Assembly (NCBI GenBank): GCA_965218295.1
Contig: CBDCKN010000009.1
Location: 480,001 to 544,000, forward strand
DNA length: 64,000 nt
Reading direction: 5' to 3'
Origin: Longimicrobiales bacterium
GTDB taxonomy: Bacteria > Gemmatimonadota > Gemmatimonadetes > Longimicrobiales > Gaopeijiaceae
Shown here: one piece after another, positions 4,480 through 12,936 of the stretch
Layout of the letters: every line of letters begins with the position of its first letter
Numbering within the stretch: position 1 is the first letter of the stretch
Notes under the pieces: model-generated
Seen by the model: the letters and a program-made list of their open reading frames with translations, nothing else
What the model was told of the DNA's origin: nothing
The model's database searches: none
Position numbers and translations under genes: made by a program

Positions 4480-5925
4480 CTACCTCCTGGGCCGCACCTC
4501 CACCTCCAGATCCTGACGCCTATACATGCAGATCCCGTTCACGTCCTCGCAGACGTAGTAGAGGGCGTATCCCGGTATGGTGATCGGGCCGCGGCCGAGC
4601 TCCTGGGGCGCACGGATCTCAGCCTCGATCACGCGGGTCTCCAGTGACACCACCTCGGGAGGGAGCGGATAGCTGGACATCCTGGTCTCGACTTCCCATC
4701 CCTCGGGCGGATCGAGCCAGAGGACCATCTCCTCGGCCTCGTTGTTCCAGTGCGCTTTCGTCCGCTGGATCGGTCGGAACGAGAAATGCAGCCGCGTGAC
4801 GTCCCCGGGAGCGACCCTGGCCGGGACCGCAACGGCCTCGGCTTCAATGAACTGGTCCTCGTCGCGAAGCACGCGACCCAGAGGGTCGGGCTCTGGGGGG
4901 GCGTCCAGGCCGACGACGAAGTCCCTTTGCGGGCTGGCGAACTCGGAGCCACGAGGCTCGACGGTGAGTGGAGCAGGCTCTTCGCCCCGGGCCTGGATCT
5001 CCTCGCGGGCCGTGACGACCCAGTCGTAGAAGGGGTACGGTTTATCTAGCCGCGGGCCATACTGCTGGATGCGTCTGCGCCAAATGTACTGGTTGGGATC
5101 GATCTCGAGCGCGGCGGACCACTCGTCCACGGCCTTCTGGAAGTCGCCTTTGCGCCGACCGTCCGAGTCGTAGCGCATCCGGTGGGCGACGCCCAGGCGG
5201 AAGTGCGCCATGCCGTCCTCCGGCTGCTCGCGCACCACCCACTCGTACGCGTCGACGGCCTGATCCACTCGGCCGGCTCCACCCCACACGGCGATCGCGT
5301 CACCATAGGCCCTCCACGCCTCCGCGCTGCCCTCGGACCGTGCGCGCGCATAGAGGGCAGCCACGTCCGGCGGAGGAGTGGCTGGCGACGGCTCGCCCCG
5401 CACGGAGCCGAAGCTCTCCTCCAGAAAGTCGTCGCTGACGCTGCCGTCCTTCTGCATCGCCGGCAGAACCTTCCGAATCACGCCGCTCTCGTCGATCGCA
5501 AGGGAGATCGGCACGTAGGGCGCCCCCAGCAGATCGTACGAGTCGACCAAAATGGGCCACCCCATCTGCTTCCACTGCATGAAGAGGAGGGCCCGGTCGG
5601 GGTGCTGCTCCTGGATGATCCCGACCATCTGTACGCTGCCGACGTCCTGGAGGCTCTCGGTCGCGTTGTGCCACCCGGGCACGTGTCGCCTACAGCCTGC
5701 TCACCAGGATGCAAAGATGTGTAGGATGACCTTCTGACCGCGGAAGTCGGCGATAGACGCGGGCCGCCCGTCGTCGAGGGACGGGAGCGACAGAGTGGGG
5801 AACGGTCTGCCCACCTTGAAGCCGTGCGACGGCATGGAGCTCTGCGCACGCGCTTCGCTCGGAACAGCGATGGCGATCAGCAGGAGTAGTGTGACGGCGA
5901 ATTGTCGGGCGGATGTGTTCATCAT
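4480..5925 (-). CDS. Probable selenoprotein (~481 aa): signal peptide + TlpA/AhpC-TSA thioredoxin fold (FASW-U-AGC) + TPR + C-terminal DsbD-N-like domain
   Basis: ORFs 5701..5925 and 4480..5682 are in one frame joined by TGA at 5701-5703, at the first Cys of WCxxC; hairpin follows. Confidence 0.85.
5668..5682 (-). promoter_or_regulatory. Candidate bacterial SECIS apical hairpin (GTGCC-CGGGT-GGCAC)
   Basis: Loop starts 23 nt after UGA; G at loop position 2. Confidence 0.6.
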
Positions 5926-6249: not shown

Positions 6250-6774
6250 TCAGGATGTCTTCGTGAGCCGGCTGACGATCTCCTCGATGACGGCGTCCGC
6301 CCGTTCTTTGATCTCGGCCGGAGTCCGATCCTGAATCGGGTGTGGGACGAAAACCGCGTCCAGGTCGGGCCGCCCCAGGCGGCTCGCCTGCACCCTGGCA
6401 GCTGTGCGAAACTCCTCCGTGGCGAGGGGCACGGAGGGGATGCCTTCCGCTTCGAGTCGAACGCTGTCGTGCAAACTGCACGTTGTGCAGGAGCCTCAGT
6501 CGGCCAGCGCTTCGATCACCCCATCCACGAAAGCGAGCCTCTCCCGCAGGGCTCTAGGAGCCGGCTTCGTGTAGGTCGGCTTGACCTCGCGAACGATTCG
6601 GGAAACGCCGTAGCGCTCCTTGAGAATCTCCTCCAGCCGATCCAAGAACTCCTTCCCTCGGGGCTTGCTGATGTCGAGCAGGGCGAGGGTCTTGCCCTCG
6701 AGGCTATCGAGCCGGGGCGCAGGAGGCAGCCGGTCTTGGGAGCGTTCATCGAGAGGGTTCACCAACGTGGACAT
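6250..6774 (-). CDS. UGSC-family (seleno)protein, ~174 aa
   Basis: AAGGAG RBS and ATG at 6774; in-frame TGA 6496-6498 gives EALAD-U-GSCTTCSLHD...LEAEGIP...HPI, the UGSC signature. Confidence 0.9.
6468..6482 (-). promoter_or_regulatory. Candidate SECIS hairpin (CGTGCA-GTT-TGCACG)
   Basis: Loop starts 19 nt after UGA and begins with G. Confidence 0.55.
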
Positions 6775-6806: not shown

Positions 6807-8459
6807 TTACCACTCTATTCGTGTATTTACCAACACCGGATATGTCACGATCTGAGAGCCTCCGGCGCCCGCCAGCCAACCCCCCAGGACTGCGGAAAAT
6901 TTTCCGGCCGTGCCGCCCGCCACGATGATCCGAATCTGCGACGGGTCTTCGAACTTCCGATAGTGGGGCTCACCGTCGATCAGGACTTCCTCGTAGGTAT
7001 CGCGGAGCTGGGTACCCTCCGTGCCCTCGTGGTCGAACGCCCGGAGGGGAACGCCGGTCTGCTCGAAGAGGAAGTCGCGCGCGTCGCTCTTGGAGAATCC
7101 GTCGGAGCTCAAGGTCGCGGCGTGCTCAGGGCACAACACCACCAGCGCGTCGATCCGCCCGCACCGCCTCCAGCTCCAGATCATGGAGAGCGTGGCGCCA
7201 ATCGTGCGGAGCACTCCGGCCCCGGTTCGGGCCGTGTGCTCGCTCACCTCCGTGAGCCCGCCGGCGGCGAACAGCGTGACGGTGCTCTGGTTCTGACCGA
7301 AGCCGAGCTCTACGTGGAGAGGCTCCCAGGGACTCTCCTCGTGATTCTCGGCCACGCAGTACGAGAAGCGTCCCGGACTTCCCAGCGCCGACATGTCGAT
7401 CTCACCCGGGAGAGCACCCCCCAGGTTCGCCATCACGAGTTGGAGCGCCCGGCCCACCGAGCTGTTGGCCCGAGCCACGTTTCCGAACACCCCCGCCCCG
7501 CTCGCGAAGCCCAAGCGCGTGGTGGCCGGCCCGCTCAGGATGATCAACGGAGTGGCCGAGTGGGTCGTCGCCTGCACCCCGTGCAGGTTGAAGCGCTCGT
7601 CGCAAGCGGCCCTGACCACAGGGATCAGAACCTCCATGTACTCCGGCTTGCAGCCCGCCATCACCGCGTTGGCGGCAATCTTCTCGACCGTGGCGGGCCC
7701 GTAGCAGGGCGGGACCAGTCCCACCACACGATCCGGTGAGTGTGGGATCGCCGCCAAGAAGGCGTCGACCCGTTCCGCCGTAGGTGGGACCACGGGAACG
7801 AATGGCGAGAAGCCGGCGCTCATGCAATACTCGTACGGATCTTCGTCCTCGGCCAACGTGAGGCGTGAGGCCCGCGGCGCGCGATCGGGAAGCGGATCGA
7901 TTGGCTCGGGCGGCGCCTCGTCAGACGCTTCGACAGCCCCGACGGCCACCGCCGACTCGAGGTGGCGGGACGCACAGCCGGGCTTCATCATGGGAGCCCC
8001 ATCGTCGAGGTCGGCCACTGTCCGCACCGGAAGTCCGAGGTCAGAGAGCATTCTCTCCGCGGCCGAGTTGAGGTCCCCCTTGTGGAAGCCCACCTCGGAG
8101 AACTCGATCTGTCCCCCGTGGCCCACGAGAAATAGCGCCGGGACGCTGGGCGGATTGAAGCTGCGAGACGCATCCAGATCGACGTCCAAGAGCACCGGGA
8201 AGCTCACGTCATAGGCCTCCACCAGCTCTCGTGTTTCAGGGCCACCGTCCTGCGAGACCGCCACGACCCGATGGCCATTGGGGCCGAGCGCCTCGGCCAG
8301 GCGTTTCAGGTACGGGACCGTAAGGCGGCAGGTGGGACAGTCGGTCTCGATGAATGAGAGGAGGATGGGACCCTCGGTCGTCTCCTCCCCGAGTCGCCAA
8401 TCGGTTCCGTCCAGCCGGGCGAGTGAGAAGTCCGGTGCCGGATCTCCCGGAGCAAGCAT
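6807..8459 (-). CDS. AhpC/TSA (TlpA-like, CPTC) domain fused to the large UGSC-associated domain
   Basis: N-terminal PGDPAPDFSL...DCPTC; C-terminal PVVPPTAERV...ATVEKIAANAVMAGCKPEY...QATT...RANSSVGRA; directly upstream of the UGSC gene. Confidence 0.8.
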   Translation of the reverse strand: MLAPGDPAPDFSLARLDGTDWRLGEETTEGPILLSFIETDCPTCRLTVPYLKRLAEALGPNGHRVVAVSQDGGPETRELVEAYDVSFPVLLDVDLDASRSFNPPSVPALFLVGHGGQIEFSEVGFHKGDLNSAAERMLSDLGLPVRTVADLDDGAPMMKPGCASRHLESAVAVGAVEASDEAPPEPIDPLPDRAPRASRLTLAEDEDPYEYCMSAGFSPFVPVVPPTAERVDAFLAAIPHSPDRVVGLVPPCYGPATVEKIAANAVMAGCKPEYMEVLIPVVRAACDERFNLHGVQATTHSATPLIILSGPATTRLGFASGAGVFGNVARANSSVGRALQLVMANLGGALPGEIDMSALGSPGRFSYCVAENHEESPWEPLHVELGFGQNQSTVTLFAAGGLTEVSEHTARTGAGVLRTIGATLSMIWSWRRCGRIDALVVLCPEHAATLSSDGFSKSDARDFLFEQTGVPLRAFDHEGTEGTQLRDTYEEVLIDGEPHYRKFEDPSQIRIIVAGGTAGKFSAVLGGWLAGAGGSQIVTYPVLVNTRIEW

Positions 8460-8614
8460 GGTCAGGTCACAGGATGGAGGGTGAGTACGCCGCCGAACGC
8501 CGCTTCGGGCTTGCGAGCCCAGTATCCTATGGGCTGAGGGTGAGGCGCAAGCCGCCGCGGGAGCAGACCCTGGAGCAGGCCAGTGGAAGCTACTGGTGGA
8601 GCGAGCCTGCCCGG

Positions 8615-8914
8615 TTATGAGATCCGCGCTGTTATGCTGGCCACCGACGGCGCTCCGTCTGCCCGGCAGGCCATCGCTGCCGTGCTGACGTTCTCTCCGG
8701 TCACGTCCTCACCGTTCACCAAGACGGTGGGTGACCCGAAGCGCCGGAAGTCAGCCGGTGTTGACTCCGCCATGAGGTCCCACTCTGACCAAGTCAGGAC
8801 CTGACCGGCCCCCTCAATTGCCTCTCTCAGGTTGTCTCGTGCTTGCGCCGTGTTGGGGCATCCGTCGAAGTAGACCAACTCGATTCGTGGCATCTTCATC
8901 TCTCTATTCTCCAT
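8615..8914 (-). CDS. Small thioredoxin-fold protein of the type found beside merB/merT
   Basis: IELVYFDGCPN...FGSPTVLVNGED...ACR. Confidence 0.75.
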   Translation of the reverse strand: MENREMKMPRIELVYFDGCPNTAQARDNLREAIEGAGQVLTWSEWDLMAESTPADFRRFGSPTVLVNGEDVTGENVSTAAMACRADGAPSVASITARIS

Positions 8915-8928
8915 GGGCCAAGAGGTGG

Positions 8929-9306
8929 CTACTCACCTTCGTCGGCCCGCTCTGTCGCACTGAAGGCAGTCATCTGTTCGAGTTCGCTCACGATCTCCGC
9001 GACGGTGGTCACCGTCGTGTCGAACGTCACGAAACCCTCTGCCGCCTCGTACGAGAAACGCGCCTCCTGCACACCCTCGACTCGCTCCACGGCCAACCCG
9101 GCCGCTGTGGCGCAGCCGTCTCAGGTCATGCCGGTGACATCTAGCGCCACCGTTCGAAGCGTTCCCTCCACGTCGGCCATGTCGGCAGGTACATCCCCCT
9201 GCAAGGTCGCTCCGTGGTCCATCGCCGCGTCTTCGTGTCCGGGTATCTGGAGCAGAATGCCGCCCCCGATCACCACGGCCACAGCCGACCATTGTTTCCA
9301 ACCCAT
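8929..9306 (-). CDS. merP: MerP-like heavy-metal-associated (HMA) protein with probable selenocysteine (GMT-U-DGC), 125 aa
   Basis: Frame stays open past TGA 9121-9123 to TAG 8929: VALDVTGMT-U-DGCATAAGLAVERVEGVQEARFSYEAAEGFVTFD; N-terminal hydrophobic segment; follows merT. Confidence 0.85.
9090..9104 (-). promoter_or_regulatory. Candidate SECIS hairpin (CGGCC-GGGTT-GGCCG)
   Basis: Loop starts 21 nt after UGA and begins with G. Confidence 0.6.
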
Positions 9307-9322
9307 CGTTTGGAATCTCCTG

Positions 9323-9667
9323 TTATAGGATGAGCGTCTGCCAACTAGGGAACGTGGCGAAGACGACGGCCACGACGGTGGCGGTCCAAAGCATGACCAT
9401 CATGCGCCGTCTGACCGCAGGGTCGGCGCACGGTTTGCCCGGAACACATGCCGCCTTCTCCTCTCGGTCGAGGAGCCAGAATCCCAGGACGAGGAAAAAC
9501 GCCGTGGCTGCCAGGAAGTACGGTCGGTACGGCTCAAATGCCGAGAGCCCGGCTCCCGACACGCCCAAGCTCACCGCCACGACCGGCCCGGCACAGCAGA
9601 GGGCCGAGCTAGCGGCTGCGAAGACCCCGCCCACGCCTGGCAATGTCGCCTTCATCGAATCTCTCAC
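9323..9667 (-). CDS. merT: Mercuric ion transporter MerT
   Basis: ASSALCCAGP in TM1, FEPYRPYF, cytoplasmic ACVPGKPC pair, three hydrophobic segments. Confidence 0.9.
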   Translation of the reverse strand: MRDSMKATLPGVGGVFAAASSALCCAGPVVAVSLGVSGAGLSAFEPYRPYFLAATAFFLVLGFWLLDREEKAACVPGKPCADPAVRRRMMVMLWTATVVAVVFATFPSWQTLIL

Positions 9668-9679
9668 GGCGTCCTCCGA

Positions 9680-10398
9680 CTACTCGACCACGTCGCCGAG
9701 GGTGTGAGCCGTGACGTGCTCCGTTAGGCTCGAATTCGCCAACGCAGCACCCCAATTCCTGGCGTTCAATCGTTTGGCAAGGTCGGCGGCTTCATCCAGC
9801 CTAAGGAGGAACGTGCCTTCGTGCTTGGTCGCCTTAGGCTTCACCCGATTCCCGCGACTCAAAGAAGAAGACGAAATGGCAGAAGCTCGCCATCACGTTG
9901 TCCGCTGACTTGAACCCCTCGGCGTCAGGCGCGACAAAAGACACCACGGTGGTCTCGGGCTCCTGAGACCGAACACCTTCGGGCGCGACCGTGGGGTCGG
10001 ATGGTACCCCCGGTCTGGGGGTCCCGACTTTCGACCCGGGCTTGCTCTCCGAGGATCTCAGGGATGAAAAGGCTGTCCCAGGCGCACCACGTCCACAGAG
10101 TGCGCCCGTCGAGATCGAGCTTGTGAGACATCGGTGCGGCAGCGAGACCTCCGAAACCCAACACGTGGCCCTCTTCATCCGGGTAGACGAAGGATCGGAT
10201 GAAATCCCTGCCTAGCAGCTCAGCACTCGCGACCGGCACATCCAGGGCTGCGGGAAGTTGCGTGGCGGATACCGGACTGCCTTTAGCTAGTTCGCGGTAA
10301 AGTGTGACGGCGGCACGTTGCTCGTCTTCCGCAAACGTCGGAAGCACTGCTTCGAGTGCTTGCCAATACTGATCGATGTCGGGTGTCTCGTTCATCAT
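9680..10398 (-). pseudogene. merB: Organomercurial lyase MerB, two frameshifts (near 10000 and 9835)
   Basis: LWTWCAWDSLFIP (catalytic Cys/Asp), then ASFCHFVFFF and FLLRLDEAADLAKRLN in shifted frames. Confidence 0.85.
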
Positions 10399-10473
10399 CA
10401 GTCTACCTCCCTTTTGTCATCGTCCTCGAGCACCTAATGGCCTGATCCGTCGTGGACCAGCCTCGACCAATAC

Positions 10474-10505
10474 AAGCTAAACCCTGTACCACAGTACGGA
10501 GTCAA
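10474..10505 (-). promoter_or_regulatory. MerR-type promoter/operator for merB-merT-merP
   Basis: TTGACT-CCGTACTGTGGTACAGGGTT-TAGCTT: GTAC-N4-GTAC dyad in a 20-bp spacer, close to the Tn501/Tn21 PmerT sequence TTGACTCCGTAC. Confidence 0.85.
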
Positions 10506-10549
10506 GGGCTGGTGGTGGTGGAGTCGGACATCAGCCGGGGAGAACTGCG

Positions 10550-12549
10550 TCAGCGGTCTGGCCAGCCCGAGTGATCGAGTTCCTCAAGGATCGGGCACGC
10601 ACCCGTCGGTTCCCGCGCCTCACATGCTTCGACCAGACGCTGGAGTGCGGTCTCAATCCGCCGGAGTGCCTCTATCTTACCGGCGACCTGCTCTAGTTTC
10701 TCTCGCGCTTGCGCCTCGACTGGACCGCACGCGGCGACCTCATTCACGCGCAGGTTGAGCAGTTCCGAAATCTCCCGGAGCGCGAAGCCGAGTCCCTGCG
10801 CCCGCCGGATGAACTTCACGCGGTCCACAGCGTCACCGGGGTACTGACGGTACCCCGACAGTGTCCGTGGTGGCTCTGGTAGCAGACCCTTGCGCTCGTA
10901 GAAGCGGACAGTCTCGACTCCGATTCCAGCCGCTTGCCCTCTCTGCCAACTTAGGTGAGACACGGAACGAGTAAAGAATTAGAGTAGGGCGAAGGCAGAG
11001 AAACCGAGGATGCTGGGACACCGAGAGAGAATGGAAGAGAATGGAATCGCCCCACTAACCTGGGAGGGTAAGCGAAGCGCGGCAGCTGCTCCGGACGCGG
11101 AGGTGGTAGATAAGCCGACGCGCCGACGGTTTAGTCCGTCGTACAAGCTGCGGGTCGTCGAAGAAGCGGACCGGTGCACGGAGCCGGGAGAAGGTAGGGC
11201 GACTCCTGCGACGGGAGGGCTTGTACTCGTCGCACCTGACGACATGGCGCAAGGCGGTGCGGAGTGGGTCGCTGAGAGTGCTGTCGAAGAGACGAGGTCG
11301 AAAGCCGAGCGAACGGAATCCGCTGGAGGGGAAAGTGCGCAAGCTGGAGCGCGAGAACACTCGCCTGGAGAAGGAACTCGAGAAGGCGCGCCTGATCATC
11401 GACGTCCAGGGAAAAGTTGCAGGGCTGCTGGGATTGAGCCTCGAGGACGGGACGAACTCGTGAAGGCGGCCGAGGCGCTGGCCACGTACGTAGGGGTAAA
11501 GCCCGCGTGCGATGCGCTCAGGGTCGCCCGAGCCACGTTCTATCGTCGTCGGAGGCCATCGACCGGGCATCAGCAGCCCCGCCCGACCCCAGCCCGGGCC
11601 TTGAGCGAGAAGGAACGAGACAAGGTCTTCGACACGCTGTGTTCGGAGCGATTCGTGGACCGGTCCCCGGCCGAGGTTGTGGCGACCCTGCTCGACGAAG
11701 ACGTCTACCTGTGCAGCGAACGTACGATGTATCGCGTTCTGGCCTCCCAAGTGCCAGTTCGAGAGCGCCGAGCGCAGCGGAGTCATCCCGAATACCAGAA
11801 ACCCGAGTTGATGGCGACGGGCCCGGGCCAGGTCTGGTCCTGGGATATCACACGGCTGCTGGGGCCGAGGAAGTGGAGCTACTTCTACCTCTACGTCATC
11901 ATGGACATCTTCAGCCGCTACATCGTGGGATGGATGGTGGCGGATCGGGAGAGCTCGGCCTTGGCCGGGCGCCTGATCCAGCAGAGTTGCCTGAAGCATG
12001 GCGTCCAGCCCCAGGTCCTGACCTTGCACTCGGATCGAGGAGCTCCGATGACGAGCCAATGCACGGCTCAGCTCCTCGCCGATCTCGGGGTGACCCGCTC
12101 GCTGAGCCGACCTCAGGTGTCGGATGACAATCCGTTCTCCGAGGCCCAGTTCAAGACCTTGAAGTACCATCCCTCGTTTCCTGGACGGTTCGAGGATCAG
12201 GGCCAGGCCAAAATGTTCTGTCGCTCGTTCTTCCGCTGGTACAATGCCGAGCACCGCCATGGCGGCATCTCGATGCTGACCCCCGAACAGGTCCACTTCG
12301 GTCACGCCGATCAGGTCATCGCCGGCAGGGAGGCCGTGCTACGCGAGGCCTGGGCCGCTCATCCCGACCGCTTCGTCTCCGGTGAGCCGAAGCCCAAACC
12401 GCTCCCGGAGGCCGTCTGGATCAATCCTCCAACCCCCTCCCTCACGACACAGGAGATTGCTCTCTAATTAATTCCCAAGAGTGTCTCACTGGCGTTGACA
12501 GGCTCCGTTGGGCCAAGGCACCGATTGTCAGCGTGGAGGTCTCAGACAT
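10550..12549 (-). pseudogene. merR: Hg(II)-responsive regulator MerR, split by an IS3-family element after codon 14
   Basis: 12549..12508 = MSETSTLTIGALAQ, joining AAGIGVETVRFYERKGLL...C...C...CPIL; three Cys; 3-bp duplication TTG at both IS junctions. Confidence 0.93.
10937..12507 (+). mobile_element. IS3-family element, copy 2 (divergent isoform), 3-bp TSD TTG
   Basis: Ends CCCTCTCTGCCAACTTAGGTGAGACAC / GTGTCTCACTGGCGTTGACAGGCTCCG; orfA/orfB appear fused (11010..12467) by an indel in orfA. Confidence 0.95.
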
Positions 12550-12555
12550 GACCAC

Positions 12556-12586
12556 ACACTAACCCCGTAGTCCGGTACGGGGTCAA
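12556..12586 (-). promoter_or_regulatory. Second MerR-type promoter/operator immediately upstream of merR (probably leaderless)
   Basis: TTGACC-CCGTACCGGACTACGGGGT-TAGTGT: 19-bp spacer with dyad ACCCCGTA..TACGGGGT; ATG 6 nt after the -10. Confidence 0.8.
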
Positions 12587-12678: not shown

Positions 12679-12936
12679 TCAACGACGATATGGGGGTGGC
12701 GGCCCGCGGTCGTCGTCGTCCCCACCAGCGCCAATTGCGTCTTTCAGACCCTTACTGGCGCGGAAGCCGGGGGTCTTAGAAGCCGGAATGTGAATCGTAG
12801 CGCCTGTACGAGGATTCCTGCCCATACGGGTCTTGCGGTGCTTCGCCTCGAACGTACCAAAGCCTGTGATCTGAACGCGACTGTCCATCCTCAGGGTTCC
12901 GGCGATGATGCCGTCAGAGCCGAAGAGTGCGTCCAT
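12679..12936 (-). pseudogene. HU/IHF DNA-binding protein lacking its N-terminal helices
   Basis: VQITGFGTFEAKHRKTRMGRNPRTG...PGFRASKGLKDAI; no MNK-type N-terminus, abuts the permease stop. Confidence 0.8.

Follow-up and report, generated by a model that had tools for sequence, protein, structure and literature searches.

The gene directly behind merT in the mer operon of a Longimicrobiales bacterium carries an in-frame TGA where MerP proteins have the first of their two metal-binding cysteines. Is this codon read as selenocysteine (Sec), and what would a selenolate do in a mercury site? An initial annotation of the window, i.e., the whole 64,000-nucleotide stretch analyzed here, proposed a Sec-containing MerP that may be a sink for mercury rather than a shuttle.

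The merP-type gene and its operon

The frame lies on the minus strand (the initial annotation gave none) and runs from ATG (9306-9304) to TAG (8931-8929) over 125 codons. Codon 62 is TGA in the context V-T-G-M-T-TGA-D-G-C and is followed by 63 more codons before the TAG, as the initial annotation had read it, and the codon of the second ligand (C65) is TGC or TGT in 17/17 Sec sequences. The ATG stands exactly 16 nt past the merT stop, with an AGGAG site in the spacer (CAGGAGATTCCAAACG), in agreement with the distance and the separate ribosome-binding site described earlier. The membrane or signal segment that had been proposed corresponds to a single hydrophobic stretch at residues 8-22 (Kyte-Doolittle mean 2.12 over 15 residues), after which come an acidic linker with His/Met and an HMA domain at residues 50-119 with U62-x-x-C65. 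Most Sec loci have a basic N-side and an acidic C-side around this segment, which may be an uncleaved anchor or a cleaved signal. On the minus strand, the operon runs merR, merB, merT, merP(U) and a DF-family gene:

8615-8914, minus: DF-family thioredoxin-like gene in its Cys form, the last of the operon (NF049942, 46.6 bits against a cut-off of 70)
8929-9306, minus: merP-type selenoprotein gene, 125 aa (frame reading, HMA profile match, model and fold search)
9089-9105, minus: SECIS-type hairpin, 6-bp stem and 5-nt loop GGGUU (conservation, covariation)
9121-9123, minus: in-frame TGA, codon 62 (Sec62), aligned with the first Cys of GMTCxxC (frame and homologue alignment)
9307-9322, minus: merT-merP spacer of 16 nt with the AGGAG ribosome-binding site
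9323-9667, minus: merT, intact and without Sec, Cys pairs ALCCAG and CVPGKPC (PF02411, 76.3 against 32.9 bits)
9680-10398, minus: merB pseudogene, frameshifts near 10016 and 9837 (PF03243 match, three-frame reading)
10486-10505, minus: MerR-type promoter/operator, TTGACT, GTAC-N4-GTAC dyad, TTAGCT/TAGCTT as -10
10550-10936, minus: 3' segment of merR, keeping the three Cys of Hg-type MerR (alignment to 4ua1 and 5crl)
10937-12507, plus: multi-copy insertion sequence of 1571 bp, presumably IS3-type from its look, with TTG on both flanks, splitting merR after 14 codons (genome copies)
12508-12549, minus: first 14 codons of merR (5' piece), with another operator-like site at 12567-12586

The operon in this genome is decaying: merR is split, merB is frameshifted, no merA was found, and merT and merP(U) are intact. 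The window's merP copy may therefore be poorly induced or idle. The truncated merR ORF scores 133 bits against the 150.85 of TIGR02051, and relatives' contigs run straight through position 10936 without the insertion sequence. The frameshift bases of merB are the same in contigs of two sequencing runs (X1 and X2, below), and relatives' contigs differ there by single-base indels. The operator was searched with a pattern that we take to be that of Tn21/Tn501; it gave 0 matches in 100 shuffles and is present in 20 of 243 loci. The spacer to the -10 element is 19-20 nt (for the spacer rule of MerR-type promoters see PMC11672702). The best MerA candidate in the window's genome reached 376 bits against a cut-off of 454, and the three top candidates have no C-terminal Cys pair, the criterion for MerA (PMC8261052).

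Several neighboring features were recorded in passing. Close relatives have no merB at all, their contig joints skipping about 750 bp from the operator to merT (window about 9690-10445), and a second DF homologue lies elsewhere in the genome without mer context (C16:1313-1606). The insertion sequence family (window 10937-12507 and 57-944) is very active, its copies (90-100%) numbering in the dozens and spread over many contigs. Upstream of merR, a short and perhaps partial frame at 12679-12936 (minus) is one that we take, from its motif, to encode a HU-like DNA-binding protein. A WAxxUGC redoxin/TPR selenoprotein candidate, unrelated to merP, lies at 4480-5925 (minus; TGA at 5703-5701; NF041054, 67 against 300 bits) and has a CGGGU loop at the merP-family offset. 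A second candidate, with the UGSC motif (A-D-U-G-S-C-T-T-C) and called from that motif only, lies at about 6250-6774 (minus; TGA at 6498-6496), preceded by a redoxin-fusion gene at 6807-8459. Outside the window, 18 tRNA genes are clustered within 4 kb (G000:C9:276539-280522).

Reading of codon 62

Contigs from three sequencing runs of two studies, X1 (8500-10964), X2 (8852-10705, from another study than the others) and X3 (8500-9184), have zero differences from the window, TGA included, with the reservation that X1 may itself be the source of the window. Since the bases agree, base-call error is ruled out as the source of the TGA. Long-read error was also considered as the origin of the odd hairpin loop and the merB frameshifts and was ruled out by the independent contigs.

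The codon is also conserved. Among 301 genomes of the order, the best 18 matches, from 17 genomes including that of the window, all carry TGA; TGA stands at the aligned codon in 17/17 returned loci, and the next 12 readable loci have TGC or TGT. A sample of 401 genomes from the phylum gave a match in 48, with TGA in 11, of which 7 were new and belonged to other orders. We then compared 41 genome loci, i.e., the window and 40 fetched flanking regions that comprise every TGA match among the top-ranked and 16 of the Cys matches: the aligned codon is TGA in 25 (24 genomes) and TGC or TGT in 16, and TGA is kept down to 38% identity. In metagenomes, a pattern scan returned 106 stretches, the best 80 of which were assessed, giving 81 matches; at least 56 homologues with TGA (56 of the 81 among the matches listed; 43 distinct sequences) were recognized, judged by the downstream domain alone.

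The initial annotation had set Sec against a picture in which all homologues have Cys and TGA occurs nowhere else. The 25 TGA loci are at odds with that picture, and the alternation with 16 Cys loci is accompanied by conservation past the codon: dN/dS is 0.17 beyond the hairpin (codons +13 to +56) versus 0.21 before the TGA (15 pairs among the 6 closest sequences), and 8 columns downstream of U62 are invariant in 15 sequences, which points to purifying selection there. A single clade of the Cys rows was rejected (AU p 0.007) in a tree of 69 columns, where two Cys sequences nest among Sec sequences; this suggests Cys reversions, with the qualification that few columns were aligned and that one of the two sits on a long branch.

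The hairpin occupies +19 to +35 (U of UGA as +1), and its loop lies 21 nt past the UGA; the loop is mostly C-G-G/U-G-U across the Sec family and GGGUU in the window. For bacterial SECIS elements, a loop of 3-9 nt, a stem of 4-16 bp, a G in the first two loop positions, a distance of 16-37 nt from the UGA and an MFE of -7.5 kcal/mol or lower have been listed (PMC13188914), and the window hairpin agrees with every one of these values (5-nt loop, 6 bp, 21 nt, -14.5 kcal/mol). Single-sequence folding of the region gave z-scores of -0.7 to 0.3, none significant, and the case for this putative SECIS element is one of conservation rather than folding energy. Across 17 sequences, 98% of the cells are paired, with compensatory changes at 3 of the 6 pairs; 0/500 shuffles were as high, and slid positions gave 27-69%. 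Since the structure was derived from these same 17 sequences, independent checks matter. The 3' arm in metagenome sequences, which lies outside the search pattern, forms 5-6 pairs in 56/56 homologues listed versus 2/25 other matches. The inner stem with its G-loop is present in 25/25 Sec loci versus 2/16 Cys loci. The fraction of synonymous differences in Sec loci falls to 0.28 in the hairpin versus 0.52 and 0.58 alongside, whereas Cys loci have 0.60 at the same position and no dip. As background, the hairpin geometry occurs at 94 of the 88,102 TGA triplets of the genome.

The window's genome (90.7% complete) has tRNA-Sec, selA, selB and selD, the last with a TGA of its own; the selA, selB and selD calls were made with protein models above curated cut-offs, and selA was detected in 23/24 TGA genomes. 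The selD hairpin differs from that of merP in loop and spacing, so not every SECIS element of this genome has the merP geometry.

From the sequence comparisons, TGA62 almost certainly encodes Sec at the first metal ligand, as the initial annotation had proposed and as the TGA at the aligned codon of 25 loci suggests. That it arose by nonsense mutation as the operon decayed, or by a wrong base call, is highly improbable: the operon is indeed damaged (merR split by the insertion sequence, merB with two frameshifts), and four of six public matches from close relatives end at GMT (P0003, P0005-P0007; P0002 and P0004 are full-length Cys homologues; two of the six have a source name, Gemmatimonadota in both cases), but the same bases recur in contigs of two studies, 23 other genomes of several orders share the TGA, purifying selection and a co-varying hairpin lie past it, and a truncated product would stop just short of the metal site. 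The earlier worry about decay was thus justified for merR and merB here and does not explain the TGA.

Relation to MerP and to catalogued selenoproteins

The read-through protein, its U read as C, scores 38.9 bits against the Pfam HMA model (PF00403, cut-off 24.8). An AlphaFold2 model from a 15-row alignment predicts a beta-alpha-beta-beta-alpha-beta HMA domain at residues 50-119 (pLDDT about 95), with low confidence at residues 1-49, and its Foldseek matches are copper-ATPase domains, CopZ and MerP (1osd, rmsd 0.9 Å). The HMA/MerP fold assigned earlier is thus borne out by the profile and the prediction. The predicted fold is silent on the metal, since copper-ATPase domains match as well as MerP does. 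The window's protein has Gly70 where Arg stands in 14/15 aligned sequences.

With U read as C, the protein reaches 39.1 bits against the 92.55 required by TIGR02052 (MerP), and Cys homologues of the family likewise remain under this cut-off. The placement is MerP-like, behind merT in a MerR-type operon, in the window and 21/25 Sec loci. Like MerP (TIGR02052; 1osd, 1afi), the protein has the HMA fold, a GMT-x-xx-C loop, a gene directly behind merT and an N-terminal export segment; unlike MerP, it has Sec for the first Cys, a linker of about 28 residues, and a conserved hydrophobic segment that ends in W...LQIP and is perhaps an uncleaved anchor.

The suspicion that Sec-containing HMA proteins were already catalogued proved correct, with NF041115, NF045683 and the ATPase UxxC entries. 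NF041115, a 'metal-binding (seleno)protein', is the top-scoring curated model (63 bits) and shares the HMA domain with Sec at the loop. However, 63 bits is below its cut-off of 95, its motif is UxxU whereas that of the window is UxxC, and its 74 positions do not span the N-terminal segment; it has been listed as UxxU, 'putative mercuric reductase' (PMC13188914, PMC9312934). NF045683 (MerT/CopZ fusion selenoprotein) and NF033556 (MerTP fusion) resemble the relatives L021 and L027, in which MerT is joined to HMA, whereas the window has separate merT and merP genes. On NF045683 the window's protein scores 30 bits against a cut-off of 375, and the relatives' fusions score 69 and 76 bits; on NF033556 the fusions score 97 and 89 against 180 bits. 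The catalogued ATPase E1-E2 (UxxC) and MerT (C/SxxU) have in common with the window's protein that Sec occurs in a heavy-metal transport protein. However, the 'cation-transporting ATPase E1-E2, UxxC' entry is a pump, whereas the window has a free, predictedly exported domain, and the 'putative mercuric transport protein' (C/SxxU) entry has its Sec in the membrane protein MerT, which carries Cys in the window.

According to reviews, Sec occurs in an HMA protein, a P-type ATPase and MerT (PMC13188914, PMC9312934, PMC1976440), and a preprint by Haft and Gwadz mentions Sec-MerT. The GOS 'MerP' was considered as prior art and rejected: its two reads are identical 33-aa fragments without GMT-U-x-x-C (PMC2398784) and therefore do not belong to the Sec-MerP family. 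A search of the open-access literature returned no description of a standalone UxxC MerP in mer operons. The Sec-MerP family is a real, unannotated selenoprotein that falls under every catalogued cut-off tested and is truncated by databases, and the kind of selenoprotein itself is already known.

Shuttle, sink or another role

The relatives give the genomic context. Sec copies are directly behind or fused to merT in 21/25 loci, including the two MerT-HMA(U) fusions L021 and L027, and are not directly behind it in 4/25; eight stand beside a true merA (over the TIGR02053 cut-off), and a DF gene accompanies 11/25. Within 4.5 kb among the 41 loci, DF occurs in 13 and merA in 20, with an overlap of 0; L052, whose reductase has no Cys pair, was counted as neither. 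MerA over the cut-off is present in 10/24 Sec genomes (14 without) versus 13/16 Cys genomes (3 without), where the Sec genomes are 88-100% complete and kin are not independent. An independent-pairs test of Sec against DF had 1 pair, and one of DF against merA was discarded as circular, only loci with either gene having been labelled. Cys orthologues occupy the same merP slot as the Sec forms, and 13/16 of them (L280-L292, L056-L058) versus 0/25 Sec forms have an extra CxxC just past the hydrophobic segment. Contigs from 4 metatranscriptome runs span relatives' merT-merP, mostly at less than 95% likeness; contigs cannot show transcription.

A separate observation concerns a flavin disulfide reductase (about 458 aa) in which TGA takes the place of the first active-site Cys codon (GGT-U-VNEG-C) and the C-terminal Cys pair is absent. 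This reductase was seen on 6 separate contigs (L277:3913-5286, minus, in G430; L285 in G418; L089; L093; L183; L293 in G190), in 5/6 of them closely behind merT-merP, and in 2/301 genomes of the class, and was not found in the window's genome. It had no match among the seleno-specific NCBIfam models.

We consider that Sec-MerP, predicted to be anchored to the inner membrane on its outer face, probably captures Hg(II) for delivery to MerT. SelB and Sec-tRNA would read UGA62 with guidance from the hairpin; machinery and hairpin are both in place, and insertion is very probable. The N-terminal hydrophobic segment would then export or anchor the domain, and U62-x-x-C65 would bind Hg(II), its selenolate, more nucleophilic than a thiol, speeding capture. 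From there, as gene order, the fusions and general metallochaperone chemistry suggest, Hg would move to the Cys pairs of MerT by ligand exchange, pulled inward by MerA or a substitute. We take the first Cys of MerP to be the exposed, exchange-initiating ligand; a literature search on the reactivity of MerP Cys14/Cys17 found no paper.

Mercury is indicated by the Hg-type MerR with its three Cys and by the MerR-type operator. Complete merR-merT-merP-merA operons contain the Sec or the Cys form interchangeably, and since the two forms share the slot in merT-merP-merA, fusions to MerT exist and the importer is kept, a shuttle is likelier than a sink. Against it, transfer from selenolate to MerT may be uphill, and metal transfer needs a favorable donor-to-acceptor gradient (PMC11672702). 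Tight metal sites can exchange via a transient higher-coordinate intermediate given such a gradient (PMC11672702), and for methylmercury Hg-Se adducts are described as exchangeable (PMC13664848). Further points against the shuttle are the 14/24 Sec genomes without MerA, the metal-blind fold, the score below the TIGR02052 cut-off, the 4/25 copies not behind merT, and Gly70.

The sink suggested by the initial annotation would be a periplasmic buffer in which a Se-Hg-S site grips mercury or methylmercury too tightly for hand-over and so shields cells without MerA. We regard this as rather unlikely. It would suit the 14/24 Sec genomes, that of the window included, and the 12/13 genomes with DF-type operons in which no MerA exceeds the cut-off, as well as the greater reactivity of selenols than thiols toward mercury (PMC13664848). 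However, a pure sink has no use for an importer, and yet merT is intact in the MerA-less operons; nor do the eight Sec copies beside true merA and the two fused to MerT fit it. The absence of MerA does not depend on Sec either, since two operons of the Cys form are likewise DF-type and MerA-less, and in three DF-type operons a different flavin reductase is present instead. Of the initial interpretation, the Sec ligand, the HMA/MerP fold, the position behind merT and the export or anchor segment are retained; given the copies beside merA, the MerT fusions and the slot shared with Cys forms, the sink is not favored.

Less probable still is a role with another metal (Cu, Ag, Au, Cd) or a U-x-x-C redox function, at least in the MerA-less DF-type operons. 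Cu-ATPase domains and CopZ among the top fold matches and the His/Met in the linker of most Sec forms would suit another metal, and the thioredoxin-like DF gene, whose atlas look-alikes are unnamed or thioredoxin-family clusters, would suit redox chemistry, UxxC being usually a redox motif (PMC2398784). However, the regulator retains the three Cys of Hg-type MerR, merT, merB and merA recur nearby, and the GTAC-N4-GTAC operator is shared.

A further reading, which we put forward tentatively and think unlikely, is a selenium-tuned, MerA-independent mercury pathway, in which Sec-MerP would load MerT, the DF protein would receive the metal inside, and the Sec flavin reductase would replace MerA in some operons.

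Catalogues already include Sec at sites that bind metal rather than carry out redox chemistry, and its roles there are said to need investigation (PMC13188914). In the Sec-MerP family, natural Sec and Cys counterparts of MerP, whose small fold is well understood, take the same place in the operon, so that whether a selenolate speeds or blocks mercury hand-over can be tested directly. The family also shows that mer operons in marine-sediment bacteria carry wrong annotations, since gene prediction ends the protein ahead of its metal site.
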